64,000 nt of DNA from an uncultured bacterium (lineage in GTDB: Bacteria; Patescibacteriota; Minisyncoccia; Moranbacterales; UBA2206): positions 11,141-75,140 of the forward strand of contig CAIZXS010000009.1 in NCBI GenBank assembly GCA_903937035.1, in the 5' to 3' direction. Both the position numbers and the translations under genes were made by a program. The notes below the pieces were generated by a model, which worked only from the letters and a program-made list of their open reading frames with translations, did not search any database and was not told where the DNA came from. Position 1 is the stretch's first letter. Each line of letters opens with the position of its first letter. This document shows positions 21,197-47,900 of this stretch, one piece after another.

Positions 21197-21286
21197 ATTA
21201 AAAAATGCTTGACAAAAAGCTAGATTTAGTGTAGGCTGAACAGTTAATATGATTTGGCAATAATAACCTGTAAATCGTTAATTTTT

Positions 21287-22827: not shown

Positions 22828-22858
22828 ATCCCCTGCCTTGGCAGGGGATTTTTTATGC
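22828..22858. terminator. Bidirectional terminator between convergent genes 21287(+) and 22853(-)
   Basis: AAAAAATCCCCTGCC-ttgg-GGCAGGGGATTTTTT. Confidence 0.8.
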
Positions 22859-24355
22859 TCCTCCTATTCCTAGGATTGGAACTGGTTCGGGGAAAATAAA
22901 GGAATTGAGGATTGTGACACCATCTTTTTCATCAGTAAAGAAGAGTTTCTCCAGGCCATTATTATGGATGACGAAAGGCGTGTCTAGGCTGCCACTAATT
23001 AGATCTAGGCAGTTGCGATGATCGCGTGCGTCTAGCTCGATTATTTTTGTGTATTTTCCAACACTAAAAATGATGTGTTCATAGTCTTTGTACCACTGGA
23101 TGTTTTTTAGGTTTTCAGAATAGCGTGTGATATTGTTCAAGTCATTTTCATAGCGAATCGGCTGTACGGTCCAATTGCGAGTGTAGTATACGGAGATTTC
23201 ATTGTTGCTATAAAAAAGTAATTTTTTCCCATCATTAGAAAAGTGCATTTCTGTTACTTGACTTCCGAGTGCTCGGAAATATTCTTCATTTTCTCCATTA
23301 TTATAGATGAAAAGATTTTGATTTTGATCAAGAAAGGCGATACGAGATTCGTCATAGACAGTGATTCTTTTTATGGTTGGGTTATTCGTGTCGGGAAAGC
23401 TATTGGTAATTTGAACTTTTTCCGATTTTCCATCAAGACTAGTCTTGAAAATGAGATTGTTGGGTGATTGGACAAAATAAACACCATTATAGGCCAAGTC
23501 ATATGCACTGATGTCGCTTGCAATTTTGGTTATGTCACTCGCATCTTTGATGTTTGCCCGAAAAAGCGATGTGCCCTCCAAAAAGAAGAGATAGCCTTTT
23601 TCTTTTGGATCCCACCTTGCATAACGAATATCATTTTTTCCAAAAAAAGTGTTCAGGTTTGTTGTGCTATTATCACTAAGATCAATGACGAAATAGGCGG
23701 TTTGGAAGTGGTTTTCCAATGAGCTTGTTTTTAATTCTGCCACATTATTTTTTTCCACAGGGACAGAAAGATAATTTTCATCTGGTGACCACTCGATATT
23801 TTCCTTCTTATCCTCCGCGAGAAGTTTCCATCCGGTAAGCGTGTAATTGCTGATAACGAGTTCACTATCTAGATCTAATTCTTTCACGAGGAGTGCATTT
23901 TCCGCGTTGGTCGTGAAAGCAATGAAGCGATTTCTGGGTGATGTAAAAAACTTATCGATTCCACGTGCTGCTTCATAGGGGGTTTTTTCGTAATTTTTTC
24001 TTGTTAGGACAACATTCCAAAATTCGCTAGAGATGCCGCTATGGACGTCGATTTTTTTATTCCAGGAATAGAAATCTTTTGCAGAGATTTCAATTTCGTA
24101 ATCTGCAGGAAGGAGGCCTGAAAGGTTGAATGAGTTATTGATTCTGTTTGGCGTAGCCGTTTCATCAGTATTGCCATTGAGAGTTGTGGTGATGTTTTGC
24201 GGATTGGCTTTGAAAGAAATCGTTCCGCTATAAACGAAAACACCTCGATGCCAATCGAAGCGATAACCGCGGGCTTCCAAGACGATAATCGGGGTAATTA
24301 TGAAGAAAATTAAGACGAGGGACCAAAAAAATAGAGTGCGTTTGAATCTTTCCAT
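22853..24355 (-). CDS. Membrane-anchored hypothetical protein with a large extracytoplasmic domain
   Basis: 500 aa with an N-terminal TM 'LFFWSLVLIFFIITPIIVL'. The remainder is rich in beta-strand-like repeats (propeller-like). Confidence 0.5.
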   Translation of the reverse strand: MERFKRTLFFWSLVLIFFIITPIIVLEARGYRFDWHRGVFVYSGTISFKANPQNITTTLNGNTDETATPNRINNSFNLSGLLPADYEIEISAKDFYSWNKKIDVHSGISSEFWNVVLTRKNYEKTPYEAARGIDKFFTSPRNRFIAFTTNAENALLVKELDLDSELVISNYTLTGWKLLAEDKKENIEWSPDENYLSVPVEKNNVAELKTSSLENHFQTAYFVIDLSDNSTTNLNTFFGKNDIRYARWDPKEKGYLFFLEGTSLFRANIKDASDITKIASDISAYDLAYNGVYFVQSPNNLIFKTSLDGKSEKVQITNSFPDTNNPTIKRITVYDESRIAFLDQNQNLFIYNNGENEEYFRALGSQVTEMHFSNDGKKLLFYSNNEISVYYTRNWTVQPIRYENDLNNITRYSENLKNIQWYKDYEHIIFSVGKYTKIIELDARDHRNCLDLISGSLDTPFVIHNNGLEKLFFTDEKDGVTILNSFIFPEPVPILGIGGA

Positions 24356-26555: not shown

Positions 26556-27668
26556 ATGGCCAAACGTGAACGACATGGAGTGAATAAAAATTTACTTTTC
26601 GTAGTGCTTCTCCTCATTACTTTTGGCCTGGCAATGATCGCTTCAGCCGGAATTGCCTATTCTCGCAGTCGCTTCGGAGATTCCTATTATTTCTTTAAAC
26701 ATCAACTTTTCTACGGTGTTTTGCCAGGATTTTTTGTTTTATATGTCACGCAAAAAATTGACTACAACTTTTGGAAAAAAATTGCCTTCCCCCTTTTTAT
26801 CTTAAGTATTTTCTTTCTCGTTTTAGTCTTTGTGCCAGGAGTCGGCTCGAAGATATATGGCGCGAGCCGCTGGCTTCAATTGGGTCCGTTTTCTTTTCAA
26901 CCTTCGGAAATGTTGAAATTGTCGATCATTATCTATCTCTCGGCTTGGCTCGAAAGTCGCGCTGAAAAAGTGAAAGATTTCTATGAAGGCTTGATTCCCT
27001 TTCTTGCCGTGGTGGGAGTTGTCAGTTTTCTTTTGGAAAAACAGCCAGACATGGGAACGCTAGGCGTAATCATTTTTATTGCCATGTCAATATTTTTTAT
27101 TTCAGGCGCTCGACTCTCACATATGTTTATGATCGCTGCTTCTGGATTTGCCGCGCTTGCCATTCTCATTAAATTTGAATCCTATCGCATGGATCGTTTT
27201 TTGGTATTTCTTCACCCCGAACTTGATCCGCGCGGGATTGGCTATCAAATCAATCAAGCGCTTCTTGCAATCGGTTCCGGGGGAATTTTTGGAGTGGGAT
27301 TAGGCCATAGTTTGCAAAAATTCAACTATTTACCGGAACCGGTGGGCGATTCAATTTTTGCTATTATTGGAGAGGAGCTTGGGATGATTGGTGTTGTTTC
27401 GTTGGTTTTATTATTTTTGTCTCTTGCGATGATTGGCTTTCGGATTGCCAAGAATGCCCCTGATCGCTTTTCCCAACTCACGGCGATTGGCATTACATGC
27501 TGGATCACTTTTCAAGCTTTCATTAACATCTCAGCTATCTCCGGACTCATTCCACTCACCGGTATTCCATTACCATTCATCAGTTACGGCGGAACATCAC
27601 TGGTTTTTTTGATGGCAGGAATCGGGGTGCTTTTGAATATTTCCAAACAGACGAGTTTGAATAATTGA
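26556..27668 (+). CDS. SEDS-family peptidoglycan glycosyltransferase (FtsW/RodA)
   Basis: 370 aa, ~10 TM helices, conserved 'PEPVGDSIFAIIGEELGMIG' and 'PLPFISYGGTS'. Confidence 0.85.
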   Translation: MAKRERHGVNKNLLFVVLLLITFGLAMIASAGIAYSRSRFGDSYYFFKHQLFYGVLPGFFVLYVTQKIDYNFWKKIAFPLFILSIFFLVLVFVPGVGSKIYGASRWLQLGPFSFQPSEMLKLSIIIYLSAWLESRAEKVKDFYEGLIPFLAVVGVVSFLLEKQPDMGTLGVIIFIAMSIFFISGARLSHMFMIAASGFAALAILIKFESYRMDRFLVFLHPELDPRGIGYQINQALLAIGSGGIFGVGLGHSLQKFNYLPEPVGDSIFAIIGEELGMIGVVSLVLLFLSLAMIGFRIAKNAPDRFSQLTAIGITCWITFQAFINISAISGLIPLTGIPLPFISYGGTSLVFLMAGIGVLLNISKQTSLNN

Positions 27669-27692
27669 TTTAATTTTTTAAAATCAAAAAAT

Positions 27693-28526
27693 ATGAGTGA
27701 AAAAATGGGAAACGGAGGAGAAATTCTTTTTACGAGGCATAGTAAGGCAAAGTATGGAACCTACGGAGAAGCAGTTAAATCGGAGAATCCGGAGGCCCCT
27801 CATGATCCAAACAGGCAATTGGAGAATGATTTGCCAGAAGCGGGGATTGAGCTAGCGAGAAAAAAAGCAGAAGAACTCTTCGCGACAATGAATCCGGAAA
27901 CGGACGCGCTATTTTTTGCATCCAGCAAAGAGATGCGAGCGTTTGAGACCGCTAAAATTTATCGGGACATTGCCAAGGAAAAAGGTTTTGAAATTATTAT
28001 TCCCTATACCGAAGAAAACAAGGAAAAAAAGAGCGGCATAACCAGAAAATTAGCCGACGAAAATATCAAAGCAATTGACAGTCTATCGCTGAAAATTCCA
28101 AATTCATTAGTGGGAAATGTGTTTAATCCGGAAGCGTACTTGGGTGAAATCAATTGGAGTGCAGTTGACGAAGAGACTAAGCGAAAATGGAAAGAAGCGA
28201 GAGAAATAATCAACTCGGATGATCAAGGGTCATGGGGCGCTAATTTCTATAAACATTCAGAGGCGATCCAAAAAATATTTCCCGAAATAAAATCTTCCCG
28301 AGATGAATATGCAACAACTTTTCAAAAATTATTAAGACTTACTGAATTTGCTCAAAATAAGATTAAAGAAGTCGGGCATGGTAAAAATGTAAAAGTGCTA
28401 TCTTTTGGTCATGAAAACTACATGGGATATGCAATGAATAAATATTTGGGAGATCATAATTTGGGCAATTGCGAGACTGTTTCAATTGATGTGGATGGGA
28501 AAGAGCTTATTAAAAAAAGAAGTTAG
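27693..28526 (+). CDS. Histidine phosphatase superfamily (PGM/SixA branch)-like protein
   Basis: 277 aa. 'LFTRHSKAKYG' (RHG-like), 'LFFASSKEMRAFETAKI' (like the SP.xRAxQTA motif) and a second His in 'VLSFGHENYM'. Paralogous to 37413-38258. Confidence 0.5.
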   Translation: MSEKMGNGGEILFTRHSKAKYGTYGEAVKSENPEAPHDPNRQLENDLPEAGIELARKKAEELFATMNPETDALFFASSKEMRAFETAKIYRDIAKEKGFEIIIPYTEENKEKKSGITRKLADENIKAIDSLSLKIPNSLVGNVFNPEAYLGEINWSAVDEETKRKWKEAREIINSDDQGSWGANFYKHSEAIQKIFPEIKSSRDEYATTFQKLLRLTEFAQNKIKEVGHGKNVKVLSFGHENYMGYAMNKYLGDHNLGNCETVSIDVDGKELIKKRS

Positions 28527-28557
28527 ATTGAATTAACAATTTACAGTAGTCAGCTAT

Positions 28558-30057
28558 ATGAAAGAACTTAAAAAGAATAAGTATAAAATTTTGCGTAACA
28601 GGAGGGTGATGCCGCTTCCTGCGATTTGGAATGGCAAAAGCCAATCGAGTGAGGGCGCAAGAAATATCCATCATGTCGCTCTAAAAAAGATCTGGAATTA
28701 TCTTGAAAATGAAGAAATAATCGCATTTTACATAGGAGAGGAGTGGACTGATATTGGAGAATATATCGCAAAAAGAATGATTGAGGATAAAAAGTATATT
28801 CCCAATGTGTATAAGCTGCAAAGGGAAAGGGGGAGATTCTTGGTTTTGCTTTCAAAGGAAATCCGAAGATTGAAATTGGGCAATCTCAATTTAGACCAAC
28901 TTTTTGCGGAGTATCAAAAAATTGAAAATGCGTGGGTTGATTTTGATCATGTTAATATGCCGACTTGGCTTATCGGAGGTGAATATTTTCAAATAAAGCT
29001 CAAAAACAAGCTGGGTATGTTGGGTATATCAGAAGAAGAGATATATACACTTTTGACACCGAATGAATTATCCTTCAGTGCAAAGGAAGAGTTGGGAATT
29101 TTGAAAATAGCGCTAAAATTAAAAAGTGATTTGCGAAGCAATAAGAAGTGGATTCTTTCAGGTGATGCAAGGAGGGGCATGGCTGCATTGGTAAAAAAAT
29201 ATCATTGGATTCCTTTCGGTTATGATGGTCCAGATCTTTATGATACAAAGTATTATGAAAAAGCCGTGCGAGAAATGGTGGAAAAAATGAATTCAAGAGA
29301 AATTAAGCAAAAAATTGAAAAAATAGACAGCTACAGCTCGAAAATAAAAGAAAGGCAGGGAAAAATTTTTGCAAAATATCACTTATCGAAAGAGCTGAGA
29401 AGACAGATCAAAATCATCCAGACCTTAGCCAAAATGACGGACGAACGAAAGGAGTATACTTTTCAATCGCACATTGCATTTCAAGGTGTAATAGAACATA
29501 TAGCACGAATCTTGGGGCATGATTGCTTGGTGCTAAAGCATCTTATTTTGGATGAGATTAGGCAATATCAGAATGATCCGAAAAAAATTATTAAGTTGGG
29601 AGAAGAAAGAATGAAAAGCCCTGTGATGTTTTATAGGCATGATGGGAAGCTGGACATTATCACTGGCCCAAGAGCGAAAAAAATGTTCAAAGAAATGATT
29701 GGAGAGGATGTCGCTTCGGATGGTTTGATTTTAAAAGGCAGTGTGGGAAGCAAGGGGAGTGTTCCAATTGTGCGAGGAATCGTTAGAATTCTTAGTACAC
29801 CGCAAGAGATGAATAAATTAAAAGACGGAGAAATTTTGGTGACGGCGATGACTACGCCGGAATATGTTCCGGCGATGCGTCGCAGCCTCGCCATCATCAC
29901 CGACGAAGGCGGCGTGACGTGTCACGCGGCGATTGTGAGCCGCGAGCTGGGAAAGCCTGCGATTATCGGCACAAAAATCGCGACAAAATTTTTGAAAAAC
30001 GGAGAGTTCATTGAAATGGATATGAAAAAAGGCCAAATAAAAAAACTAGCCCAATGA
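28558..30057 (+). CDS. PEP-utilizing-enzyme mobile (swivel phosphohistidine) domain protein with a ~380-aa helical N-terminal domain; no ATP-grasp domain
   Basis: The C-terminal 100 aa 'GEILVTAMTTPEYVPAMRRSLAIITDEGGVTCHAAIVSRELGKPAIIGT' match the phosphohistidine swivel domain of PEP synthase, PPDK and rifampin phosphotransferase. Confidence 0.75.
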   Translation: MKELKKNKYKILRNRRVMPLPAIWNGKSQSSEGARNIHHVALKKIWNYLENEEIIAFYIGEEWTDIGEYIAKRMIEDKKYIPNVYKLQRERGRFLVLLSKEIRRLKLGNLNLDQLFAEYQKIENAWVDFDHVNMPTWLIGGEYFQIKLKNKLGMLGISEEEIYTLLTPNELSFSAKEELGILKIALKLKSDLRSNKKWILSGDARRGMAALVKKYHWIPFGYDGPDLYDTKYYEKAVREMVEKMNSREIKQKIEKIDSYSSKIKERQGKIFAKYHLSKELRRQIKIIQTLAKMTDERKEYTFQSHIAFQGVIEHIARILGHDCLVLKHLILDEIRQYQNDPKKIIKLGEERMKSPVMFYRHDGKLDIITGPRAKKMFKEMIGEDVASDGLILKGSVGSKGSVPIVRGIVRILSTPQEMNKLKDGEILVTAMTTPEYVPAMRRSLAIITDEGGVTCHAAIVSRELGKPAIIGTKIATKFLKNGEFIEMDMKKGQIKKLAQ

Positions 30058-30120
30058 TAGTGTGAACACAAGGTTCACGATATATCATTAGGCTAGCGAC
30101 GTAGTTGGTTGGTTTGCCAA

Positions 30121-30624
30121 TTACATTTGGAGTGCGGGGTCAAAAACTCCATATGCAATCATCTGATCAATCTGACGAATTTCTCCGTCATTACAGAGGA
30201 TGCGATATACTGCCGCGCTCTTTCCGTTGATGCCCAAGGCGATCATGAAAGGTCTGCCGGAACAAACCACAGTTTTATCTGCAAGCCCTGTGATAAACCT
30301 TTTTGCAGATACGGAGTTGTCGGCGAGGGAGGTGTACAGGGCGATATTGATATGGGTTCCATCGGACAGGATTACAATTTTTTCACCGTCAATGACTTCC
30401 ATGCTGTCGGGATCGCCAACAACGGAAGAATAACGACGGATTTCATTGTAATTCAGTGCTGTGGCCACATCAAGATGGCGTCCCCCGGTTCCAACAACCA
30501 AAACGGGTATTTTTACGGGAAGGAGGTGGCGGAGAGATGCGATTTCTTCAAATCCCTTGGGAGTCATGCGGGGATTTGGGCCATTAGTCTTATCACCATG
30601 AGTTACTACAAAAATTTCGTTCAT
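30121..30624 (-). CDS. Small SixA-like histidine-phosphatase-fold protein (degenerate RHG as THG)
   Basis: 167 aa. 'FVVTHGDK', then 'MTPKGFEEIASL', then 'VLVVGTGGRHLDVATAL', matching the SixA layout RHGDA...PLT.xG...LVSPFxRAxQT. Assignment is tentative. Confidence 0.35.
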   Translation of the reverse strand: MNEIFVVTHGDKTNGPNPRMTPKGFEEIASLRHLLPVKIPVLVVGTGGRHLDVATALNYNEIRRYSSVVGDPDSMEVIDGEKIVILSDGTHINIALYTSLADNSVSAKRFITGLADKTVVCSGRPFMIALGINGKSAAVYRILCNDGEIRQIDQMIAYGVFDPALQM

Positions 30625-30714
30625 TCTCGGGTCCTTTCATAATTGCTATTGGTTTGTAAAATGTACTTCCAAGCTTTTTATTTTAACTGCTAATTATATA
30701 TCAAATTCAGCTAA

Positions 30715-33700
30715 TTGTCAAGCCGTCGCTTAGCTAGAGCTGATTTGAGCCTCAATATGCTTACAAAAAACTTCCAACAACTATCCAAATCAGACGCTCA
30801 AATCGCCGGTGGCAAAGGTGCGTCACTTGGCGAAATGACAAACGCGGGAATTCCAGTTCCACCCGGCTTTGTCGTGCTTTCTGATGCTTTCGAACAGTTC
30901 CTTGCCGAAACGGATTTGAATGTGGAAATTGAGGCAATTCTCAAAACTGTGGATAATCAGAAAATGCATACGGTGGAAAATGCGTCAGAAGAAATTCAAG
31001 CGCTAATTCTCCAAGCTAAGATGCCGGAAGATATTGCAAAAGAGATTCAGGAAAACTTCAAAAAACTAGATGCCAAGTTTGTAGCCGTGAGATCAAGTGC
31101 CACCGCCGAAGATGGTGCAGAAGCGGCCTGGGCTGGGCAGCTAGACAGTTATCTCAATACGAACCAAGAAGCACTTCTCAGAAACGTCCAAAAATGTTGG
31201 GCGTCACTTTTCACGCCGAGAGCCATCTTTTATCGCTTTGAAAAAAAACTGCACAAGCAAAAAATATCCGTGGCAGTGGTCGTGCAAAAAATGATCCAAA
31301 GTGAAATTTCTGGCATCGCTTTTTCCGTTCATCCAGTCACCGAGGATTATAATCAAATGATTATCGAAGCTGGCTTTGGTTTGGGCGAAGCGATTGTTTC
31401 CGGGTCAATTACGCCGGATGCCTATGTGGTGAGCAAAAATCCGAGAAAAATAGAGGACATCAATATTTCCCAGCAGCCCAAGGGACTTTTTAGAAAAAAA
31501 GATGGCGGAAATGCCTGGCAAGATATTCCCGAGAAAGAAGGCAAAAAACAAAAACTATCAAAAAAACAAATCCTGGAATTGTCAGATCTAATCATAAAAA
31601 TCGAAGACCACTATCAATTCCCGGTGGACATTGAGTGGGCATATGAAAACAAGAAATTCTATATTGTGCAATCGAGACCGATTACGACGCTTATCAAAAA
31701 GTTGGGAGATATGCCAAAGAAAAATGTTGGCAGTGGAAGTGGAATCTTGGAGAATAATTTAGGCAAAAAGGATGGAAAAGTAATTGGGAAATTGTCGGAC
31801 TACCAACAAATGTTTAAATGGCAAAATTCTCTTCCTTATCTCGTAACGTCACTTTTTTTGACTTACTATAAAAAATTAGATGTTTTGATTCTGTCTGATC
31901 CTAAGTTGTGGGTAGCATATTTGCCTCTATCGAAAATGGAAAAAACTCACCAAGATGGGTTTAAGATTTATGGTGACAAAAAAAGATATGCAGAGTATAG
32001 GGATGACTTTAAGAAGTATATGGAAAATTCCGAGAAGTTCTTTAAGAATGTTATCCACAGTAAAGATTTGGACAAAAGCCAGACAAGAGAATTCTTGAAT
32101 AGGGTGGCAAAACTTTTTTCGTATTATTCAAAAGCAGAATTTTTTTATACTGAAAAGGCATACTTTGAGCAGGAGAATAACCTGGCTATCAAAGAAAATT
32201 TTGCAACTTTTGAGCAGCTAAAAATAGATGGTCGAAAATTTTTGAATAAAATATTTTTCGAAAAAGATACCTACTTGCTCCAACTAATGAATAGATTATC
32301 CGAAAAATTCAAAATTTCATCAGATTTTCTTCTGACATATAATCAACAAGAAATTCTCGATTTGTTTGAGGGGGGTATTGTGGATGAAAAAATAATTTTG
32401 CAAAGAAAAAGAGCGTATATTTCAAAAGGAAAAAAGGAGGGGATTGCTAGTTATCATGGAACGGAAGCGGAGAAAATGATTAAAGAATTTAATTCGGAGC
32501 AATCTGAAAGCGGAAATGTGTTGAAAGGGCAAGTTGCCAATAAGGGATATGCGAAAGGCGAAGCTCGAGTTTTTAAATTTGGCTTGAATGATTTTCATCT
32601 ATTGAAAGAAATGATTGATTCTATGAAAAAGGGAGAAATATTGGTAGCTGAAACTACGGCGCCTGAAATAATGGTAGCTTGCCAAAAAGCTAGCGCTATC
32701 GTGACTAATCAGGGAGGCATGATGAGTCATGCAGCGATTATTTCACGAGAAATCGGCATCCCGTGTATTGTGGGGACAAGTATTGCAACAGAGGTTATCC
32801 AAAATGGCGATTTGGTGGAAGTGGATGCTAATGAGGGAGTGGTGAGAATTTTAAGAAGAAACTCTGATGAAGAAAGTGGAATTGTTTTCAACAAAAAGTA
32901 TGAGCGTGTTTTTGGCGGACCGAATATGTCGTTTCTAATTTCGGATATTATTACGGATGTGTATGCCCCAAAATATGGATTCGTGACGATGTATAAAAAT
33001 TCCATTTGGACATGCTACATGCCCATTGAAGAAAAAAACAAAACTTTAGCAGAAGGAGCGGAGTTGTATGAGAATATGGAGAAGTATGAGGAATTTAGAA
33101 GTGAATATCTGAAATTTATTGATGCTTATGATAAACACTTTCGCGAAATATTTAATCCAAATAAAGTTATTACCAAAGAAATATTTGAAGCGCTTATTGA
33201 TCTATTTAAAAAAGCGGAGTCATATTATGCATATACGCAATATTTCTACACCGATGGGATTTCCCAAGCAAATAAAGAATTTGAAGTAGAATTTGGAGCT
33301 CTCAAAGAAAAGGGTCGAGAACTTTTGAATAGGCAATATTTTTCTGGCAATAATTACCTAAACGAAGTCCTTGAGGCAGTTTCTAAGATAATAGCTATTA
33401 AAAAAGATGAACTGTATAATTATGCCTGGCAGGATATTAGTTTGCTTTGGAATAGCAATAATGCCAAAAAAGACATTCGTAAATGGGAAACTTATGTCAC
33501 GTATCCAATAAATGGGTCCAAGAGCACTGCCTTTGAATCGGAAGCTTTGGAAATTATTGATCAATTTTTATCAAATCATAACGATCACCGTGAAATACTG
33601 AGTGGCACGGTTGCCAATAGGGGCAAAGTCGTGGGTAATGCTTATGTTCTTGATAAGGGCTATGATCACAGGGGTATCGGAAAATTTATTGATGAGATGG

Positions 33701-35241
33701 AAAAAGGCGCTATTCTTATCACTGAGACAACTTCGCCTGAGATCATGACTGCTTGCGAGAAAGCCAGCGCAATTGTGGCTAATCAAGGAGGACTGATGTC
33801 GCACGCCGCCATCGTTTCTCGGGAATTAGACATCCCTTGCATTGTCGGATTGGAGGGAGCGACTGAAATTATAAAGAATGGTGATTTGGTTGAAGTGGAT
33901 GCGGATAATGGAATCGTTAGGATTTTGGAAAAGGCGAAAAATGATGAATATTTCAAGTTCAAATTTCCGGCCTATCGGTATTTTATGGCAAATAGGCTGA
34001 TTCCTACTTTTAAATATGAAGGGGTCTATTTATGGGGGGAGATATTTGGCGAATATTCTTTCGATGGTATACACAGAACTTGCACTAATAAAAACGTTCT
34101 CCTTGAGCCGGGAAAAAAACTTTTTGCGCTACTGAAAAAAGGTGATCAAAAACTGGAAAAAGAACTTCTTGCGCTTGTGAATAAGATTATTCCATTGGCA
34201 AGAGATCTTCAAGAAATTATCTTGAGAGATAAGCTCACCGGTCATGTTTCCAATCTCAATGATTTTTTCCCCAATTACGAGAAAGTATTCAATAAAGCCT
34301 TGGCGTTCGGTTATCCTCTTGATTATGCTATTGATGAATATCTCAAGAAAGATGCTTCGCTCTCAGAAAATTTGCAATCCCCATACAGTTCTTTTTTGAT
34401 GGAGGAGGAATATGAATTGTATGAAATATTTTCAAAAAAATATAAAAAACCAGAACTAGGCAGGGCACTTGAGCGCCACCTGGCGAAATATGCTTGGATT
34501 AAATCTGATTATCAAGGAGAAAATGTGCTGACAATTGATGATTTATATGCAAAAGAAGCTCGGCTGATGGATACGAAACAGGAAAAAACCAAAAGTGTCG
34601 GTGGAAAAATTTCCGCTCCAAAAAATTTGCAGGAATGGATTTCTCTTCTGATATATTTGAGAGATGTGAGAAAAAAAGTAGGGATGATTGGTGTGGTTTT
34701 GCTAGACCGATATTTAAAGCAGGAATGTCAAAGATTGAAAAAAGATTATCTGAAAGCCAGACTGTTATCGGTGGCAGAGTTTGAGCAGTATAAAAATAAA
34801 AAACTTCCGGAATATCTGGACAAAAGAAATGAACGCATGTCTCCTGATGGCATAGAAATTATACCCAATGAAAAATGGCAAAAGTATCCCTTTAATCAAG
34901 AAGTGGTGGTGGACAAGGAAAAGCTTTTAACAGGAGTGGTTGCCAATAAAGGTAAGGTTAAGGGAATAGCAAGGATAATCATTGGAAAACACGATTTTCA
35001 TAAGATGGGAAAAGGAGAGATTATCGTTGCTTCAATGACTAGACCGGAATTTATGCCAATTCTCAGAAAAGCTTCTGCCATACTAACTGAGCAGGGTGGC
35101 ATCACTTGTCACGCAGCGATTATCTCAAGAGAGTTGGGTGTGCCTTGTATTATTGGTATCGAAAATCTGACAGCGGCATTGAAGGACGGAGATTTGGTGG
35201 AAGTAGACGCGGATAATGGGGTGGTTAGAATTTTGAAATAA
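30715..35241 (+). CDS. Giant multidomain phosphotransferase: PEP-synthase-type N-terminal ATP-grasp (PPDK_N) domain plus three [helical domain + swivel phosphohistidine domain] modules
   Basis: 1508 aa; the track ORF starts at a TTG at 30715, and the first ATG is at 30757. Residues 1-325 match PEP synthase/RPH ATP-binding domains ('AQIAGGKGASLGEM', 'VAVRSSATAEDG', 'FSVHPVTED', 'YIVQSRPIT'). Swivel domains with catalytic His lie at ~nt 32560-32850 (QGGMMSHAAIISRE), 33600-33920 (QGGLMSHAAIVSRE) and 34920-35238 (QGGITCHAAIISRE). Confidence 0.8.
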   Translation: MSSRRLARADLSLNMLTKNFQQLSKSDAQIAGGKGASLGEMTNAGIPVPPGFVVLSDAFEQFLAETDLNVEIEAILKTVDNQKMHTVENASEEIQALILQAKMPEDIAKEIQENFKKLDAKFVAVRSSATAEDGAEAAWAGQLDSYLNTNQEALLRNVQKCWASLFTPRAIFYRFEKKLHKQKISVAVVVQKMIQSEISGIAFSVHPVTEDYNQMIIEAGFGLGEAIVSGSITPDAYVVSKNPRKIEDINISQQPKGLFRKKDGGNAWQDIPEKEGKKQKLSKKQILELSDLIIKIEDHYQFPVDIEWAYENKKFYIVQSRPITTLIKKLGDMPKKNVGSGSGILENNLGKKDGKVIGKLSDYQQMFKWQNSLPYLVTSLFLTYYKKLDVLILSDPKLWVAYLPLSKMEKTHQDGFKIYGDKKRYAEYRDDFKKYMENSEKFFKNVIHSKDLDKSQTREFLNRVAKLFSYYSKAEFFYTEKAYFEQENNLAIKENFATFEQLKIDGRKFLNKIFFEKDTYLLQLMNRLSEKFKISSDFLLTYNQQEILDLFEGGIVDEKIILQRKRAYISKGKKEGIASYHGTEAEKMIKEFNSEQSESGNVLKGQVANKGYAKGEARVFKFGLNDFHLLKEMIDSMKKGEILVAETTAPEIMVACQKASAIVTNQGGMMSHAAIISREIGIPCIVGTSIATEVIQNGDLVEVDANEGVVRILRRNSDEESGIVFNKKYERVFGGPNMSFLISDIITDVYAPKYGFVTMYKNSIWTCYMPIEEKNKTLAEGAELYENMEKYEEFRSEYLKFIDAYDKHFREIFNPNKVITKEIFEALIDLFKKAESYYAYTQYFYTDGISQANKEFEVEFGALKEKGRELLNRQYFSGNNYLNEVLEAVSKIIAIKKDELYNYAWQDISLLWNSNNAKKDIRKWETYVTYPINGSKSTAFESEALEIIDQFLSNHNDHREILSGTVANRGKVVGNAYVLDKGYDHRGIGKFIDEMEKGAILITETTSPEIMTACEKASAIVANQGGLMSHAAIVSRELDIPCIVGLEGATEIIKNGDLVEVDADNGIVRILEKAKNDEYFKFKFPAYRYFMANRLIPTFKYEGVYLWGEIFGEYSFDGIHRTCTNKNVLLEPGKKLFALLKKGDQKLEKELLALVNKIIPLARDLQEIILRDKLTGHVSNLNDFFPNYEKVFNKALAFGYPLDYAIDEYLKKDASLSENLQSPYSSFLMEEEYELYEIFSKKYKKPELGRALERHLAKYAWIKSDYQGENVLTIDDLYAKEARLMDTKQEKTKSVGGKISAPKNLQEWISLLIYLRDVRKKVGMIGVVLLDRYLKQECQRLKKDYLKARLLSVAEFEQYKNKKLPEYLDKRNERMSPDGIEIIPNEKWQKYPFNQEVVVDKEKLLTGVVANKGKVKGIARIIIGKHDFHKMGKGEIIVASMTRPEFMPILRKASAILTEQGGITCHAAIISRELGVPCIIGIENLTAALKDGDLVEVDADNGVVRILK

Positions 35242-35276
35242 AAAAACAGCCCAATCTCTCGCAGGAGATTGGGCTG
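35241..35276 (-). terminator. Terminator (T-run on the minus strand) after the LMW-PTP gene; may also pause plus-strand transcription from the giant gene
   Basis: CAGCCCAATCTC-tcgcag-GAGATTGGGCTG, with an A7 run on the plus strand, which is a T7 run on the minus strand. Confidence 0.6.
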
Positions 35277-35288
35277 AGGTTGTGGCGG

Positions 35289-35735
35289 TTATTTTTCAGA
35301 AAACCGGCGCGTTACCACCCTGTACATCTTGGCCATGACGTTTTCGGCAACTTCGTCATGGTCTCGCTGGTCGCTGGATGGCCAGGGGTTGGAGAGTTGA
35401 ATGTTAAAGATCTTTTCGGTTGGTACCTTATACTTCCCGAAAAGTTCTCCGGCTACCGTCTCATCCACGCAAACGATGAGTTCATATCGTGATAGATCAA
35501 GTGAGCCGACCCATCTTTTCTGGTGGCCAGAGAGATCAAGCCCTAACCGTTTGGCAGAAACTACGCCATTAGGACTGGCGGAGCCACCGTTCTTGGTGAA
35601 CTCCATCATTCCAGCGCTTTCTACCGTAACTTCATGGCCAGCGTTTTGGAGATACATCCCCAGAACGGCAGCCATAAGCGGGCTGCGATCGGAATTGCCA
35701 ATACATACACAAAGAACTTGTTTGATATTAAGCAC
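35289..35735 (-). CDS. Low-molecular-weight protein tyrosine phosphatase / arsenate-reductase-fold phosphatase
   Basis: 148 aa with an N-terminal P-loop 'VLCVCIGNSDRSPLMAAVL' (CX4-5R, CxGNxxRS signature). Confidence 0.75.
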   Translation of the reverse strand: MLNIKQVLCVCIGNSDRSPLMAAVLGMYLQNAGHEVTVESAGMMEFTKNGGSASPNGVVSAKRLGLDLSGHQKRWVGSLDLSRYELIVCVDETVAGELFGKYKVPTEKIFNIQLSNPWPSSDQRDHDEVAENVMAKMYRVVTRRFSEK

Positions 35736-35897
35736 TATTCACCTCACTGGTTGATTGTTTTGCCATTGTGGCACATGAAAACTACTTTCCTCGACTGACC
35801 CAATAGTATAGCATATCTAGCGTAAAAAGTCAAATGTCAGTTTGATTTTATGGTTTAAATGGGGTAGTATTGAGTAAGATTGGATAATTTTTGATGT

Positions 35898-37388
35898 ATG
35901 GAGAGGAAAAATAGCTATCAAAAAATGTGGGGAGCGCACGCGATGGGCGTTTTTTGGGGTGAGCTGGTGATGCGCAATTTTTCTAGGAAGAATAAATATA
36001 AAACGGTGGCCGGTATCAGCGAAAAAAACGCTGTTTTTTATTATCACAAAAGCGTGGGAACAGCATTTTATAATTCAGTTCCCGAAATGGACGTATCGGG
36101 CGCAATTGGTCGGGAAAGATTTTCTAATCAAAAAGAACTAAAGAAATATATTGAAAATTCCAAGGAGGCTATTGGAAAATCTGATGCATTGTATTTTGAC
36201 GTGTTAAAAGAAGACTTAGATAAAAAGAACGCTAGAGCGCTTTTCAACCTATTGGAAGCGCAAGCAGATTGTTTTAATGAGATATACAGCTACTATCATG
36301 CTTGTCAGCCACAATATTTTTCTGAAATAGAAAAAGATATAAAATTATATCTGGCTAAAAAAGGACTGAGTCGAGAGGCTAATTATTATATCGGCTTACT
36401 TTCTTCTCAGGAAGAATTGGATGTGATCGCCAAAGAGGAAGTTGAATGGCTGACTATTGCCAGGATGATGCAAGAAAAAAAGTTAGATAGGGCTTCATTG
36501 GTCGAAGCTAGCGAGATGGAAAATAAATTAAAAAGGCATATTGATAAATATATGTCTTTAGGTAGCGGGGAGGGAGGGCGACCATGGGATAAAAAGTATT
36601 ATTGGGGTATTTTTGAAAAAATTGATTTTGATATTAATAAGAAGATATCAGATATTAATGAAAGAAAAAAAGTCTTAATGCAAGAAAAAGAGGCATTTAT
36701 TCGGGAGAAAGAAATTTCCAATGAGGTCGTGGAACTTGCCAATGCCGTGGGAAAACTTGGCATGCTGCGATTGGAGATTCGTCTCAGTTGGATGCGGTTT
36801 AGTCACACTATTACCAACACGCTTTTAGCGCTGGGGAAAGAAATTAGTCTTGATAATATCTTGGAAATAAGGATGGATGAAATCAGGAACATAATAGAAA
36901 ATAACGATCATGCAGTGACGGAAGAAGAAATAAAAAGACGCCAGGAAGCCTTTTTGTTTTTAGTTGAAAATGAAGAGGAAAAATTATTCATTGGAAATGA
37001 AGCGATTAGTCTCAAGGAAAAGCTTGTGCCTTCCGAGATTTCAGACACTTTGGAGATAAAAGGATTTGTGGCTTGCAAGGGTATGGTTCGAGGGAAAGTT
37101 TTTATGATTGATTGGAATAATAAAAATCTGACTGAAGCGATGAGAAACATGGCGGAAGGAGCTATTCTAATAGCTGGACAAACCAGACCTCAGCTTATGC
37201 CAGTTATCAAAAAAGCGGCGGCGATTGTAACTGATGAAGGAGGGATTATGTGTCACGCTGCTATTGTTTCCCGTGAGCTCAACATTCCTTGCATCATCGG
37301 CACCAAAATCGCTACCCAAGTTCTCAAAGATGGTGATTTGGTGGAGGTTGACGCAAATGAGGGAATTGTTAGAATTATAAAGAATTAA
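35898..37388 (+). CDS. PEP-utilizing-enzyme mobile domain protein (helical N-domain + swivel phosphohistidine domain)
   Basis: 496 aa with C-terminal 'GAILIAGQTRPQLMPVIKKAAAIVTDEGGIMCHAAIVSRELNIPCIIGT'. Same modular layout as 28558 and 38277. Confidence 0.75.
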   Translation: MERKNSYQKMWGAHAMGVFWGELVMRNFSRKNKYKTVAGISEKNAVFYYHKSVGTAFYNSVPEMDVSGAIGRERFSNQKELKKYIENSKEAIGKSDALYFDVLKEDLDKKNARALFNLLEAQADCFNEIYSYYHACQPQYFSEIEKDIKLYLAKKGLSREANYYIGLLSSQEELDVIAKEEVEWLTIARMMQEKKLDRASLVEASEMENKLKRHIDKYMSLGSGEGGRPWDKKYYWGIFEKIDFDINKKISDINERKKVLMQEKEAFIREKEISNEVVELANAVGKLGMLRLEIRLSWMRFSHTITNTLLALGKEISLDNILEIRMDEIRNIIENNDHAVTEEEIKRRQEAFLFLVENEEEKLFIGNEAISLKEKLVPSEISDTLEIKGFVACKGMVRGKVFMIDWNNKNLTEAMRNMAEGAILIAGQTRPQLMPVIKKAAAIVTDEGGIMCHAAIVSRELNIPCIIGTKIATQVLKDGDLVEVDANEGIVRIIKN

Positions 37389-37412
37389 AAATAATTAATT
37401 AATAAAAAAAAT

Positions 37413-38258
37413 ATGGAACAAAACGAATCAAGTATGTTTATGACTCGGCACACGATAAAGCCCAAAGGCGAGGATCTTAAATCGGAAAGATATCCTGGCG
37501 CGTCTGAGCGTGGCGTAGATTTGGCAAAAGAGAGAGCGAAGGAAGAGATCTTGAGTTTGATTGAAAAGGCAAAACCAGGAACAGTGGTGATTATTAGCGG
37601 TGCGTCTGAAGTGGACAGAACAAAATCAGCCGGAGAAATATATGGGGATGAGCTCCAGGAGTTACTCAAGGATAATCCGGGCTATCTGGTTGTCACAAGA
37701 AGCGAAGTTCAAGACATGTTGAGTCAAAAAGATGGCAAGGCACTTGATAAATTAGCAGAAATTGTTAGAAGTAATCCTGATAAAAAGATTGTTATTGATT
37801 TTCCATTATTCTTGAAAGAATTTGGTTTCGGTGCTGGGAGGTGGACAGAAAAAGATGGAAATCTTACAAAATATTTTCAAGCATTGTTAGAAAAACACAA
37901 TAATGATGAAATGGCATGCGTCAAGGATTGGATTGAAAATGAAGGACGCATTGATGGGTCGTCTTTGCAAGGACCGAATCCAGCTGAGATGGCAAAAGAG
38001 CACATCGAGGGACTAAAAAGAATTAATGATTTTGCTCGAAAACTGATTGGAGGGAGTCGGCCAATTATGGTGGGCGGTGTAGGGCATAGTGTGAATTTGG
38101 ATGCTACCGCAATATATTTGTCCAATAATGGTCAAGTAACAATGGAGGGATTTGAAAAACTAGGTGGGGAGTTGATAAAAGAAACCGAACTGATGCAGTT
38201 AGAGACAAAAGATGGAAAGACCATCTTCAATTACAGAGGCAAGGAATTTATTGTTTAG
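37413..38258 (+). CDS. Histidine phosphatase superfamily-like protein (paralog of 27693)
   Basis: 281 aa. 'FMTRHTIKPKG', 'VVIISGASEVDRTKSAGEI' and a second His in 'MVGGVGHSVNLDATAI'. Confidence 0.5.
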   Translation: MEQNESSMFMTRHTIKPKGEDLKSERYPGASERGVDLAKERAKEEILSLIEKAKPGTVVIISGASEVDRTKSAGEIYGDELQELLKDNPGYLVVTRSEVQDMLSQKDGKALDKLAEIVRSNPDKKIVIDFPLFLKEFGFGAGRWTEKDGNLTKYFQALLEKHNNDEMACVKDWIENEGRIDGSSLQGPNPAEMAKEHIEGLKRINDFARKLIGGSRPIMVGGVGHSVNLDATAIYLSNNGQVTMEGFEKLGGELIKETELMQLETKDGKTIFNYRGKEFIV

Positions 38259-38276
38259 TCTGCTAATTAGTAAATC

Positions 38277-39722
38277 ATGGATATGACTTGGAAAATTTAT
38301 ACACGAGGAACAATTTTCCCTCACTCATTCTCACTTTCCTTTAAAGCGCATCAGCTGTCAGAAAAGCTGATTGGCTTTAATTTTCTAGCTTTCTTCTATA
38401 TTAATATTGAAGATAAATTGTGGTGGGCATGGAAAGAAGACGATGTTCTTTTCCTAGGCGCTTCAATCCTCAAAAGATGTGAGACGAAGAGGGGGCAAGA
38501 AAGGGATTTTAAGAAATTTGATGAATTTTGCAAAAGAGCGCTAAAAGCGGCGGATAAAGTAAGAAGGATGGATCTGGGAAAATTTAGTGACAGAGAGTTG
38601 CTCGGACTGTACGATTATATTTACAAAGAATCTGCCAACGCGCATGGTCTCATGAATCCCTATATCGACGTAATTGATGTTGTTTTTGAAGATTTTTTGA
38701 TGGAAAAAATTAAGACTGAATTGAAAGCTGCAACAGAAGCTGAGGCGCTGAATGTTTACAAAGAGCTAACTGTCCCAAGCTGTTTGACGTATTTGATTAG
38801 AGAAGAAGAGGATATTATTCGAGGTATTATTAGTGGAAAATCAGTTGGGGAAATAGCTAAAACTATTTTTAAGAAATATTGGTGGATAAGTCTTGGGTGG
38901 GAAAATATGCATCCCCATAGCGAGCAGTATTTTGCGAAAAAAATTACAAAACATTTCAAGCTCAAAAATTTAGCTGAACGCTTGGGGAAAATAAAAAGCT
39001 ATGGTCGGGAGATAAAAAACAAAAGAAAAATAATAATCAAGCAATATGGGTTGTCAAAAAATATTGCGTATTGGCTGGATGTCTTGGACGAGCTGGCCTA
39101 TTATCATGATGTGAGAAAAGAGATGCAAATGAGAACTGTTTATGCGTCGCATCAGGTGCTGGAGGAGATTAGTAAGAGGATTGGTATTCCAGTGAAAAAT
39201 CTATTGTGGTTTTGGGAAGATGAGGTGAAAGAATTTTTGTTAAACAAATCGTTTGACAGGGAGGAACTAGAAAATAGAAAAAAAGCCTTTTTTAGTGTAG
39301 TGTATAAGGGTAGCACTTCTTGGTTATCAGGAGAGAAGGCTCTCAGTGAAAGCAAGAAGTATATTGGCCTAGAAAATGGGAAACATGATTTGGTAAGGGA
39401 ATTTAGGGGTTTTGCCGCATCCAAGGGGATGGTGAGGTCAAAAGTGAAAGTGTGCGCGGGATATGTAGAAGCTTTAAAGAAGGTAAAAAAAGGTGAAATT
39501 TTAGTGTGTGGAATGACTACACCTGACTATGTTCCTGCTATGCGAAAAGCTTCTGCTATAATAACAGATGAGGGTGGTATTACTTGCCATGCTGCGATTA
39601 TCAGTAGGGAGCTGGGCATTCCCTGTGTCGTGGGAACAAAAGTCGCTACTCAAGTTTTACATGATGGTGATTTGGTCGAGGTTGATGCGAATGTGGGAAT
39701 TATTAGAATTTTAAATAACTAA
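38277..39722 (+). CDS. PEP-utilizing-enzyme mobile domain protein (helical N-domain + swivel phosphohistidine domain)
   Basis: 481 aa with C-terminal 'GEILVCGMTTPDYVPAMRKASAIITDEGGITCHAAIISRELGIPCVVGT'. Confidence 0.75.
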   Translation: MDMTWKIYTRGTIFPHSFSLSFKAHQLSEKLIGFNFLAFFYINIEDKLWWAWKEDDVLFLGASILKRCETKRGQERDFKKFDEFCKRALKAADKVRRMDLGKFSDRELLGLYDYIYKESANAHGLMNPYIDVIDVVFEDFLMEKIKTELKAATEAEALNVYKELTVPSCLTYLIREEEDIIRGIISGKSVGEIAKTIFKKYWWISLGWENMHPHSEQYFAKKITKHFKLKNLAERLGKIKSYGREIKNKRKIIIKQYGLSKNIAYWLDVLDELAYYHDVRKEMQMRTVYASHQVLEEISKRIGIPVKNLLWFWEDEVKEFLLNKSFDREELENRKKAFFSVVYKGSTSWLSGEKALSESKKYIGLENGKHDLVREFRGFAASKGMVRSKVKVCAGYVEALKKVKKGEILVCGMTTPDYVPAMRKASAIITDEGGITCHAAIISRELGIPCVVGTKVATQVLHDGDLVEVDANVGIIRILNN

Positions 39723-39732
39723 AGTATTAGAG

Positions 39733-39872
39733 GACTTACGCGTTTGCCAAAAGCAAGCTTTTCCATAGCCAAGATTGGTTTAAAACCCTAGTGATTTTAG
39801 GGGCTAAAATAAACAAAAACAAGCTCTGAGACACCACGCGTTTTAAAGATTGTTTTTGGTAAAGGCGTAAGT
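39733..39872. mobile_element. MITE-like element, family 2, second copy
   Basis: Shares 'GACTTACGCGTTTGCCAAAAGCAAGCTT' on the left and 'GGTAAAGGCGTAAGT' on the right. Lies between 38277-39722 and murG. The spurious ORF 39736-39930 lies inside it. Confidence 0.65.
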
Positions 39873-39891
39873 TATATACTAGATAAATTTT

Positions 39892-40995
39892 ATGCGTATC
39901 ATTCTTGCTGGAGGAGGAACTGGTGGACATCTTACACCGCTTGTGGCGGTGGCGAGGAAGATCAGAGAAAAAGTTCCTGAAGTCGAGTTTTGTTTCATTG
40001 GACCAAAAGGAAAATTAGAAGATGATATTATGGGGCAAGAAAATATTCCTATTAGAAATATCCAGACAGGAAAGTTGCGACGCTATTTTTCTTTTCGAAA
40101 CATCTTGGATTTTTTCAAAATTCCATTGGGAATCGTGAAATCCATGTGGCTTTTATTGGTGTTGATGCCTGACGCCATTTTTTCCAAGGGAGGCTACGCT
40201 TCGTTTCCTGTCGTTGTCGCTGGTTGGCTATACCGCATTCCAATCCTCATTCATGAGTCTGATTCCAACCCGGGCTTGGCCAATTCGATGCTGGGAAAAT
40301 TTTCCAGCCGTGTTGCTGTGTCATATATGGAAGCAGAGAAATATTTTCCGGCTGCGCAGGTTGTGCTCACGGGAAATCCATTACGCGATAATATTAATAA
40401 GGGTAGCGTTGAAAAGGCACGACAATTTTTAGGTTTCACTGAATCACGAAAGATTATTTTTGTTTGGGGTGGGTCACAGGGAGCAAAGAATATCAATGAC
40501 AAAATCGTGCGTCTTCTTCCTCGGCTTTTGCATAAGTATCAGGTTGTTCATCAGGTTGGTGAAAATAATTTCGAGGAAGTTAGTCGTATGGCAGGGGAGC
40601 TTGGTTATAAGGTGGGGCATGATGGCTATTTTGCCGCGCCATTTTTCAAAGAAGAGCTAATAGATATTTTGGCAGCTGCGGATTTGGTCATTTCGAGGGC
40701 GGGGAGCACTTCTATTGCAGAAATCGCCGCCAATAAAAAACCGGCTATTATTATTCCATTGGAGACTTCTGCTAGTGATCATCAAAGAATGAATGCCTAT
40801 TCTTTGGCACGAATCGGTGGTTGTGTAGTGATGGAGGAAAATAATATGGGGGAGCATATGTTATTGGAAAAAATTGATGAAATTATGGATAACGAAACAT
40901 TGCGCAATAACCTCTCCGCAAATATCGGGACATTTTATCATCCGGATGCGGCAGAAAAAATCGCAGATGGAATTTTAGGAATGATTAAAGAATAA
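39892..40995 (+). CDS. murG: Undecaprenyldiphospho-muramoylpentapeptide beta-N-acetylglucosaminyltransferase
   Basis: 367 aa. 'MRIILAGGGTGGHLTPLVAVA' and C-terminal 'GAGSTSIAEIAANKKPAIIIP' motifs. Adjacent to murC. Confidence 0.85.
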   Translation: MRIILAGGGTGGHLTPLVAVARKIREKVPEVEFCFIGPKGKLEDDIMGQENIPIRNIQTGKLRRYFSFRNILDFFKIPLGIVKSMWLLLVLMPDAIFSKGGYASFPVVVAGWLYRIPILIHESDSNPGLANSMLGKFSSRVAVSYMEAEKYFPAAQVVLTGNPLRDNINKGSVEKARQFLGFTESRKIIFVWGGSQGAKNINDKIVRLLPRLLHKYQVVHQVGENNFEEVSRMAGELGYKVGHDGYFAAPFFKEELIDILAAADLVISRAGSTSIAEIAANKKPAIIIPLETSASDHQRMNAYSLARIGGCVVMEENNMGEHMLLEKIDEIMDNETLRNNLSANIGTFYHPDAAEKIADGILGMIKE

Positions 40996-46290: not shown

Positions 46291-46365
46291 TTATAGATTA
46301 GTCTAATTAACATATCGGGGTTTTAGGGAAAAAGTCATTTTCCTCATAATCTCGATCAAAAACAT

Positions 46366-46740: not shown

Positions 46741-46780
46741 AATGAAATTTTAGAAAGTTAATTTTTAAAAGGGGAATAAA

Positions 46781-47221: not shown

Positions 47222-47231
47222 ATAAAAAGTT

Positions 47232-47270
47232 GACTTGACAGGCTTGACCATTTTTTGCTAGAGTGAAAAC
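47232..47270 (+). promoter_or_regulatory. Sigma70-like promoter (TTGACA-18-TAGAGT) driving a long structured leader
   Basis: 'ttgacaggcttgaccattttttgctagagtg' lies ~230 nt upstream of the 47495 start codon. Confidence 0.4.
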
Positions 47271-47842: not shown

Positions 47843-47865
47843 ACTTTTCCAAGTAAAAACAGAAA

Positions 47866-47900
47866 AATTATGAGAGCGGTCAACGCGCCGCTCTCATAAT
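47866..47900 (+). terminator. Probable terminator after 47495-47842
   Basis: TGAGAGCGG-tcaacgc-GCCGCTCTCA, followed by an interrupted T-run. Confidence 0.45.

Follow-up and report, generated by a model that had tools for sequence, protein, structure and literature searches.

Some dikinases that phosphorylate small molecules are split into two proteins. In HpeHI of Rhodococcus, CreHI of Corynebacterium and PpsAB, the phenylphosphate synthase of Thauera, an ATP-grasp protein forms a transient complex with a separate protein that joins an acceptor-binding domain to a mobile "swivel" domain (PMC12167813). In rifampin phosphotransferase (RPH), which converts ATP and rifampin to AMP, Pi and rifampin-phosphate, the histidine of the swivel shuttles 49 A between two sites (PMC4844700; PDB 5FBS/5FBT/5HV1). 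Here we consider a 12-kb island (27693-39722) in a 64-kb window from an uncultured bacterium of the Moraniibacteriota; the window is the whole stretch of DNA that was analysed, and coordinates are positions in it. The island holds six swivel domains, one PPDK_N ATP-grasp domain, one low-molecular-weight protein tyrosine phosphatase (LMW-PTP) and three divergent proteins resembling the histidine-phosphatase superfamily, and its genes run in the order hp1, modA, small, giant, LMW-PTP, modB, hp2, modC. A swivel together with the helical domain ahead of it is called a module below. Judging from sequence profiles and a structure model, the parts of the island belong to the small-molecule dikinase superfamily of RPH, PpsAB, CreHI and HpeHI, because the model of modC matches only RPH beyond the swivel. 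With moderate confidence, we read the island as a many-module "acceptor, water dikinase" of the RPH/PpsAB type, in which one ATP-grasp domain would charge several phosphohistidine carriers in cis and in trans, each with its own acceptor.

The island shares with HpeHI, CreHI and PpsAB a separate ATP-grasp component, an RPH-like acceptor-binding domain followed by a C-terminal swivel histidine, and the lack of a TIM barrel. The stand-alone PPDK_N genes of related loci would correspond to HpeI, and modA, modB and modC to HpeH. The known systems, however, have one grasp domain per carrier, serve aromatic catabolism and occur in free-living bacteria, whereas here one grasp domain is found for at least six carriers, and the hosts are bacteria of the Candidate Phyla Radiation (CPR) and DPANN archaea. 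Unlike in the known systems, two to five carriers can be fused to the grasp domain in one chain, and partner phosphatases are present. The island carriers are also shorter, at about 480 aa against about 600-640 aa in the known two-component systems (PRK08296-type models, 568-633 positions; HpeH, 71 kDa), and they resemble the PRK08296-type NCBIfam models in the swivel only.

Other relatives are matched in part. As in RPH, residues 1 to ~720 of the giant protein comprise an ATP-grasp domain, a helical acceptor-binding domain and a swivel histidine, but this is not RPH proper (NF041857 / NF000283): the giant, at 444.6 bits, falls short of the cutoff of 999, and the modules score 51-62 bits. The ATP-grasp and swivel domains are homologous to those of phosphoenolpyruvate (PEP) synthase and pyruvate phosphate dikinase (PPDK). 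Unlike in these enzymes, there is no C-terminal TIM barrel, and the swivel comes after a helical domain, not before a barrel; the match to NF005057, which served as the test for PEP synthase/PPDK, covers positions 5-461 of 798 only, in separate stretches. With Enzyme I of the phosphotransferase system (PTS) the swivel alone aligns, and neither the island nor the arrays of related loci showed a barrel, HPr or EII.

The original prediction for this DNA took the organisation to be undescribed, which needs to be narrowed. The division into an ATP-grasp component and an acceptor-binding plus swivel component is already known from PpsAB, CreHI and HpeHI (PMC12167813), whereas the many-module organisation seems to be new. 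In the literature searched, which was incomplete, there was no description of a one-grasp-to-many-carriers ratio, of chains with 2-5 carriers, of conserved paralog arrays restricted to CPR bacteria and DPANN archaea, or of systematic pairing with proteins of the histidine-phosphatase fold. A survey of the CPR resistome merely counts rph-like genes (PMC8651080).

Swivel modules and the ATP-grasp protein

The six PEP-utilizer swivels that had been claimed were all recovered by profile search, as PF00391 matches modA, modB and modC once each and the giant in three stretches (Pfam, E 5.7e-73). The claim that each keeps its catalytic histidine also stands: the motif GGxxxHAAI[IV]SRE is read in six of six swivels, the histidine being H456 in modA, H672, H1030 and H1466 in the giant, H453 in modB and H438 in modC. 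In modA, modC and giant swivel 3 the motif is of the PEP-synthase type, GG[IV]TCHAA. The Thr or Ser of T/SxxGGxxxH is kept in five of the six. The exception is giant swivel 2, where A1022 (33778-33780) replaces a Thr that is near-invariant in orthologs, and given this residue, swivel 2 may be a weakened or specialised carrier. A repeat scan revealed only the diverged swivel copies and no repeats bounding the island; because the DNA identity of the copies is only 64-70%, they are taken as old duplicates.

Homology among the modules extends past the swivel: identity is 30% between modA and modC (413 aa aligned), 38-45% between the last ~180 aa of modB and the giant modules and modC, and 36% between giant modules 1 and 2 (363 aa aligned). 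The helical domain of giant module 3 is related to modA (giant aa 1250-1507, 33% identity over 296 aa), and the alignments of modA itself to the NCBIfam models of PigC and RPH start at aa 269-280.

Ahead of each swivel lie ~265-395 aa of largely helical sequence, in agreement with the RPH-like layout that had been suggested. An AlphaFold (AF2) model of modC, made with 106 homologs (pLDDT 95.3, pTM 0.93), shows the swivel behind a largely helical domain that has a small sheet at its N terminus. When this model was compared with the PDB by Foldseek, six RPH entries came out on top (E 2.6e-13 to 5.7e-11), with template-modelling (TM) scores of 0.56-0.58 for 5fbt, 5fbu and 5hv1 and lower scores for the other three; the remaining PDB matches, at TM ~0.2, cover the swivel alone. 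Positions 307-478 of the modC family profile also align with RPH-Lm 699-866. According to the model, then, the helical domain of modC has the fold of the acceptor (RIF-binding) domain of RPH, which holds for at least one of the six modules. Near-invariant motifs of this domain in the modC family are R10-G11, D131/D134, WWTxLGWE and HDxR280-K281-E282xQ284.

The restriction of PPDK_N to the giant was borne out, PF01326 matching solely at aa 29-330 of that protein. Against the PDB, this grasp domain matches PEP synthase 8a8e (E 4.2e-90), RPH 5hv1 (E 3.4e-78) and the RPH grasp domain 5hv6 (E 2.3e-61). It is 42-46% identical to its orthologs, with dozens of residues invariant across 19 of them, and looks functional in sequence. 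Every one of the best 120 homologs of the giant (1009-2533 aa) has a single PPDK_N domain, together with two swivels in 58, three in 36, four in 19 and five in 7; the ~1040-aa form, with the grasp domain and two modules, is the ortholog of giant aa 1-1090. PF02350 (epimerase) and PF01989, considered as extra domains of the giant homologs, were rejected as weak, below-threshold matches on or near the swivels. The TTG start of the giant at 30715 is overlapped by a perfect minus-strand promoter match, and because homology to PEP synthase begins only at aa 17, the true start is probably the ATG at 30757.

The island was also said to have no PEP/pyruvate-binding TIM barrel (PEP-utilizers_C, PF02896-type), and none was found, either in the island proteins (Pfam and NCBIfam) or in the flanking genes at 21254-46290 (Pfam). 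None occurs among 25 listed of the 28 families matched by the other large open reading frames (ORFs) of the window, and PEP-utilizers_C is not among the 25 most frequent of the 48 Pfam families matched by genes inside the arrays of related loci.

Related arrays in CPR bacteria and DPANN archaea

More than 6000 homologs of modC are about 480 aa long, and those with names come from Patescibacteria, Woesearchaeota and Margulisiibacteriota and carry generic labels only. The loci compared here comprise 10 obtained by exact-match look-ups and 41 from a scan of a genome collection. All of them are tandem module arrays, with 239 swivel-bearing ORFs altogether and from 2 to more than 10 modules per array. 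A separate PPDK_N gene (312-329 aa where complete) is located at or near arrays of grasp-less modules in at least 13 loci. Both one-grasp proteins with 2-5 modules and tandem stand-alone arrays are common in Patescibacteria and DPANN.

Clustering of 197 helical domains gave paralog groups that occur once per locus and are common to CPR bacteria and DPANN archaea. The group of modC (cluster 1) is present in 38 of 38 loci, since the loci were selected with it; cluster 2 counts 14 loci, clusters 3 and 4 count 9 apiece, and cluster 5 counts 8. modA falls into cluster 15, common to loci L006 and L033, and modB is a singleton (cluster 73). By this sequence comparison, the groups are ancient specialised paralogs, not recent amplifications.

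Some arrays have a conserved neighbourhood. In at least seven genomes (L004, L009, L017-L019, L027, L030; e.g., L004:3632-11431), a gene for a PfkB-type nucleoside-kinase-like protein, the S-adenosylhomocysteine (AdoHcy) hydrolase gene AhcY and the S-adenosylmethionine (SAM) synthetase gene MetK are followed by the array, and a 137-aa cytidylyltransferase-like gene adjoins the modC-type module. This last neighbour may be a clue to the acceptor, with phosphorylation followed by nucleotidylylation. In an unrelated CPR genome (JGI 3300076002, 901-kb contig; L047:201-18331 / L048:6265-24860), a 28-kb island lies directly after MraY-FtsW-MurG-MurC-MurB. Its two giants, of 1619 and 2300 aa, both carry a grasp domain; the island also has four stand-alone modules, genes for an HD protein and an rve integrase, and a His_Phos gene on the minus strand. 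It is a second association of such islands with the division and cell wall (dcw) cluster.

Phosphatase-like genes and the interval between FtsW and MurG

The features of the island and its immediate flanks are collected in Table 1.

Table 1. Features of the island and its borders, in positions of the 64-kb window.
Feature	Positions	Strand	Description
FtsW	26556-27668		upstream of the island; KH protein and TrmD also upstream
hp1	27693-28526	+	277 aa, divergent, histidine-phosphatase-superfamily-like; 31 nt upstream of modA
modA	28558-30057	+	499 aa; helical acceptor-type domain aa 1 to ~395; swivel aa 397-496 (29746-30045), H456; PF00391 aa 422-492, E 1.1e-23
small	30121-30624	-	167 aa, SixA-sized, histidine-phosphatase fold (predicted), atypical T-H-G
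Promoter-like TTGACA-17-TATAAT	30693-30721	-	upstream of small; 12/12 consensus match, consensus alone
giant	30715-35241	+	1508 aa; ATP-grasp, then three helical plus swivel modules
ATP-grasp (PPDK_N) of giant	30799-31704	+	aa 29-330; PF01326 E 1.1e-100
Swivel 1 of giant	32608-32856	+	aa 632-714; H672, motif GGMMSH
Swivel 2 of giant	33676-33930	+	aa 988-1072; H1030, motif GGLMSH
Swivel 3 of giant	34933-35235	+	aa 1407-1507; H1466, motif GGITCH
Hairpin	35247-35276		12-bp stem, terminator-like; between the convergent stops of the giant and LMW-PTP genes
LMW-PTP / ArsC-fold protein	35289-35735	-	148 aa; PF01451 aa 7-101, E 1.6e-11
modB	35898-37388	+	496 aa; swivel aa 388-496 (37059-37385), H453, GGIMCH; PF00391 aa 419-489, E 2.7e-24
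hp2	37413-38258	+	281 aa, divergent, probable member of the histidine-phosphatase superfamily; 18 nt upstream of modC
modC	38277-39722	+	481 aa; swivel aa 376-481 (39402-39719), H438; PF00391 aa 404-474, E 5.1e-27
MurG	39892-40995		downstream of the island; MurC, P-type ATPase and MurB further downstream

The assignment of hp1, hp2 and small to the histidine-phosphatase superfamily, made in the original prediction, fails by direct search, as none of the three single sequences matches Pfam (including PF00300), NCBIfam or the PDB sequences. It regains ground through families and folds. In the hp2 family (A3), R12, H13, R69 and H225 are invariant, and 6 of 36 members pass PF00300, although the hp2 of the window does not; the family profile finds the putative phosphoglycerate mutase (PGAM) 3eoz as its top PDB match, weakly (E 0.015), over the RH...R region. 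hp1 is related to family A3 by hhalign (probability 95%, E 2.4e-8, N-terminal half only, with the RH...R region) and by the A3 profile (E 1.8e-6), and direct reading shows R15-H16, R82 in the motif SSKEMRAFETA and a late GH. Both proteins are ~280 aa long with a long insert and fall below the Pfam thresholds. For small, fold prediction gives a histidine-phosphatase/SixA-like fold and size, and hhalign shows no relation to the hp2 family. The small and LMW-PTP genes are separate minus-strand units; the long plus-strand ORFs at 30109-30642 and 35401-35754 are antisense shadows of them, the conserved genes being those on the minus strand. For the LMW-PTP assignment, PF01451 scores 45 bits against a cutoff of 23.2, with a match ending at model position 95 of 144, and the P-loop, read directly, is intact (C11-IGNSD-R17-S, VCIGNSDRS, i.e., C-x5-R-S). 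A Wzb-type NCBIfam model also matches, at E 2.7e-7, far under its cutoff.

Phosphatases were said to be dedicated to the modules. Their association does recur in other arrays: His_Phos_1 is the most frequent family among the 76 non-module genes inside arrays (9 genes), followed by HAD and HD (5 each) and cytidylyltransferase-like proteins (3), and the hp2 family adjoins modules or PPDK_N in 7 of 7 contexts examined, while the targets are inferred only. Genes of the small family are opposite in strand to the modules in 4 of 4 loci seen. At L052:7761-8504, a gene of the AbiEii family (toxin-like nucleotidyltransferases) has an hp2-family gene on one side and a stand-alone PPDK_N gene on the other, within one array.

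The island is embedded in a cell-division/cell-wall cluster, between FtsW and MurG, in a window of low GC content (~0.40) without a compositional break at the island. Synteny with relatives, which was to be checked, proved to be partial. Three Moraniibacteriota relatives (the window, L006 and L049) have shared flanks, at 92-99% identity, and differing contents of the FtsW-MurG gap (window 27669-39891; L006:6648-11614; L049:5029-12472). L006 is the metagenome-assembled genome (MAG) Candidatus Moraniibacteriota ELA543, 94% identical over the query domain, with flanking proteins at 92-99%, which places the organism of the window in the CPR (Patescibacteria); alongside an M20 amidohydrolase, the gap of L006 has a modA-like gene at 61.5% identity and modC at 94.8% over the full protein. 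The L049 gap encodes, in addition to a 678-aa protein with grasp and swivel domains and one unknown protein, an APH-family kinase and a Bro-N protein, together with hp2 at 90% identity and a module of 514 aa. The gap is a hotspot of gene content.

Scans of the window for tRNA genes and Rfam families gave no match. A P-type cation ATPase gene (948 aa, 42419-45265, plus strand) stands between murC and murB and keeps this position in L006 and L049; in L049 the spot is shared with a Y1 transposase-like gene, and L006 has an additional 703-aa ORF between murG and murC. Two DUF4012 paralogs lie at 21254-22651 and 57651-59111, both on the plus strand, with ~38% mutual identity as judged via the L006 ortholog, which is 96.7% identical to the copy at 21254-22651. 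A beta-propeller-like protein of 500 aa is encoded at 22853-24355 on the minus strand. The rest of the window (1-21000 and 46300-64000) includes F-type ATP synthase subunits (~2310-6386), several GT1/GT2 glycosyltransferases, Wzy_C, a flippase, nucleotide-sugar enzymes, a radical SAM protein and an APH-family kinase.

Proposed mechanism and rival explanations

If the island is a many-module dikinase, its chemistry would follow that of RPH, PpsAB and HpeHI. The ATP-grasp domain of the giant would bind ATP and pyrophosphorylate a swivel histidine, with the gamma-phosphate lost to water. The phosphorylated swivel would then swing back onto its own helical domain and phosphorylate a hydroxyl of the bound small molecule, yielding AMP, Pi and acceptor-phosphate. 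As the gene organisation suggests, the grasp domain would serve the three tethered modules in cis and modA, modB and modC in trans, via transient complexes. Given the age and divergence of the paralogous helical domains, each module would have a distinct acceptor. The genetic pairs hp1-modA and hp2-modC, with the SixA-like protein and the LMW-PTP, would provide enzymes that hydrolyse or isomerise the phospho-products or discharge the phosphohistidine carriers. Scavenged nucleosides, cofactor precursors and sugars are candidate acceptors weakly suggested by the context in other genomes, and the hotspot behaviour of the gap, together with the APH neighbour, hints at adaptive or xenobiotic substrates.

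A number of observations weigh against this proposal. It gives no account of the way in which the second and third swivels of a chain would get to the grasp domain at the N terminus, and a kinase and a phosphatase acting on the same substrate would make a futile cycle unless regulated. No grasp domain was found within 10 kb of the modA-like and modC genes of L006 (the rest of that genome was not searched). The motif HDxRKExQ lies near the expected place of the phosphate-contacting RPH block R666/E667/K670 (PMC4844700), an inferred equivalence, as the profile alignment starts only at RPH 699. In giant modules 1 and 2 another motif, FYTD...KxxxRxxxN, is conserved, and modB has R-L-E. The two phosphatase-like proteins of the minus strand are atypical. 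Unlike SixA, the small family has T-H-G in place of R-H-G, so that Thr stands for the canonical Arg, and it lacks the second His (consensus V-T-H-G...R49...VICxGRP, with H9 and R49 kept), and the acid loop of the LMW-PTP reads NPWP, not DPYY (by direct reading, in an uncertain alignment). Finally, the two grasp-bearing proteins of the L047/L048 island mean that "one charger" is not a rule. Of the modular system originally predicted, with one charger acting in cis and in trans, the single ATP-grasp domain is therefore not general, while charging in trans is made plausible by the separate PPDK_N genes of related loci.

Some of the same features could be read as a phosphohistidine relay or regulatory network, in which phosphate would move from the swivels to proteins or between swivels, and not to metabolites, and the carriers would be reset by the SixA-like, His_Phos and LMW-PTP proteins acting as protein phosphatases, in the manner of SixA on phosphohistidine proteins. 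The presence of three His_Phos-type proteins and one PTP amid six phosphohistidine carriers would fit a relay, as would the SixA-like fold and size of small, several swivels on one chain that could pass phosphate among themselves, and the retention, in modA, modC and giant swivel 3, of the PEP-synthase-type Thr at position -2 from the His, the regulatory site in PEP synthase/PPDK (PMC12167813). We nevertheless think a relay unlikely: the helical domain of modC has the small-molecule-binding fold of RPH, the HAD (YjjG/nucleotidase-like) and HD hydrolases of other arrays typically act on small phosphoesters, and no HPr, response regulator or other known phospho-acceptor protein was found in the arrays. 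There is also a small chance that the island is a fast-turnover accessory one directed against foreign molecules, through RPH-like inactivation of antibiotics or of host or phage compounds, or through anti-phage defence. RPH is a resistance enzyme (PMC4844700), and rph-like genes have been included in a CPR resistome (PMC8651080); the gap contents differ despite nearly identical flanks, with modA much less conserved than modC; and an APH-family kinase and Bro-N occur in one gap variant and an rve integrase inside another island. Yet PADLOC defence models gave no significant match (all E > 1e-3), most paralog groups are kept in CPR and DPANN alike at one copy per locus, the synteny with MetK, AhcY and the PfkB-type nucleoside kinase is a conserved one with housekeeping genes, and partner phosphatases would reverse an inactivating phosphorylation.

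Three further explanations have less to recommend them. The modules might be activating ligases like PigC, RedH and HapC, where carbonyl or hydroxyl phosphorylation drives condensation, and a multi-module protein would be a biosynthetic assembly. The NCBIfam PigC and RedH models do align over 160-230 aa of modA and modB, beyond the swivel, and 2-5 modules per chain recall assembly-line enzymes, but the scores are far under the family cutoffs (57-77 bits vs 1300) and no other secondary-metabolite genes were found in the island or arrays. CPR and DPANN genomes are, in addition, very small and have little biosynthetic capacity, and we consider such ligases improbable. It is more doubtful still that the stand-alone modules are transphosphorylases, which would move phosphate from a donor metabolite to an acceptor without an ATP-grasp domain. 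HpeH alone transfers phosphate from 4-phosphoacetophenone to acetovanillone (PMC12167813), and the L006 modules are without a nearby grasp domain; most longer arrays, however, are accompanied by PPDK_N genes or domains. The suspicion that the pieces are fragments of a disrupted ppsA/ppdK gene has next to nothing left in its favour beyond swivel sequences that are closest to PEP synthase. It was rejected, as all ORFs are intact and every stand-alone module has thousands of homologs in a family of full-length proteins of ~480 aa. The N-terminal domains of the modules are unrelated to PEP synthase/PPDK and, by the modC model, have the RPH fold, no TIM barrel was found, the swivel copies are far from identical in DNA, and six swivels against one grasp domain are not collinear with a single gene.

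Returning to the many-module dikinase, a broader and more speculative picture can be drawn, which we regard as possible, though rather unlikely in full. CPR bacteria and DPANN archaea might possess a hitherto unrecognised "phosphoryl-distribution hub", in which one grasp domain charges many interchangeable carriers (2-5 fused, up to ~10 free), each with its own acceptor pocket and often with its own partner of the histidine-phosphatase type. Such a hub would replace a set of conventional small-molecule kinases and trap or salvage host metabolites in these ultra-small cells, and fast turnover of modules at hotspots like the interval between FtsW and MurG would tune the acceptors to the host.

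The island would make up ~1% of a genome of ~1 Mb, and CPR/DPANN genomes of about this size have few recognisable metabolic enzymes. The island proteins are soluble and modular, so they are amenable to recombinant study despite the uncultured hosts. The conserved genetic pairing with proteins of the histidine-phosphatase fold makes a kinase-phosphatase or kinase-mutase partnership open to direct test. If the proposed dikinase activity is real, the recently defined subfamily of two-component dikinases would be extended from aromatic catabolism to a large and phylogenetically distinct group, and a shared charger with swappable heads would represent a new route to kinase diversity, which could explain part of the "missing" salvage metabolism in CPR/DPANN symbionts.

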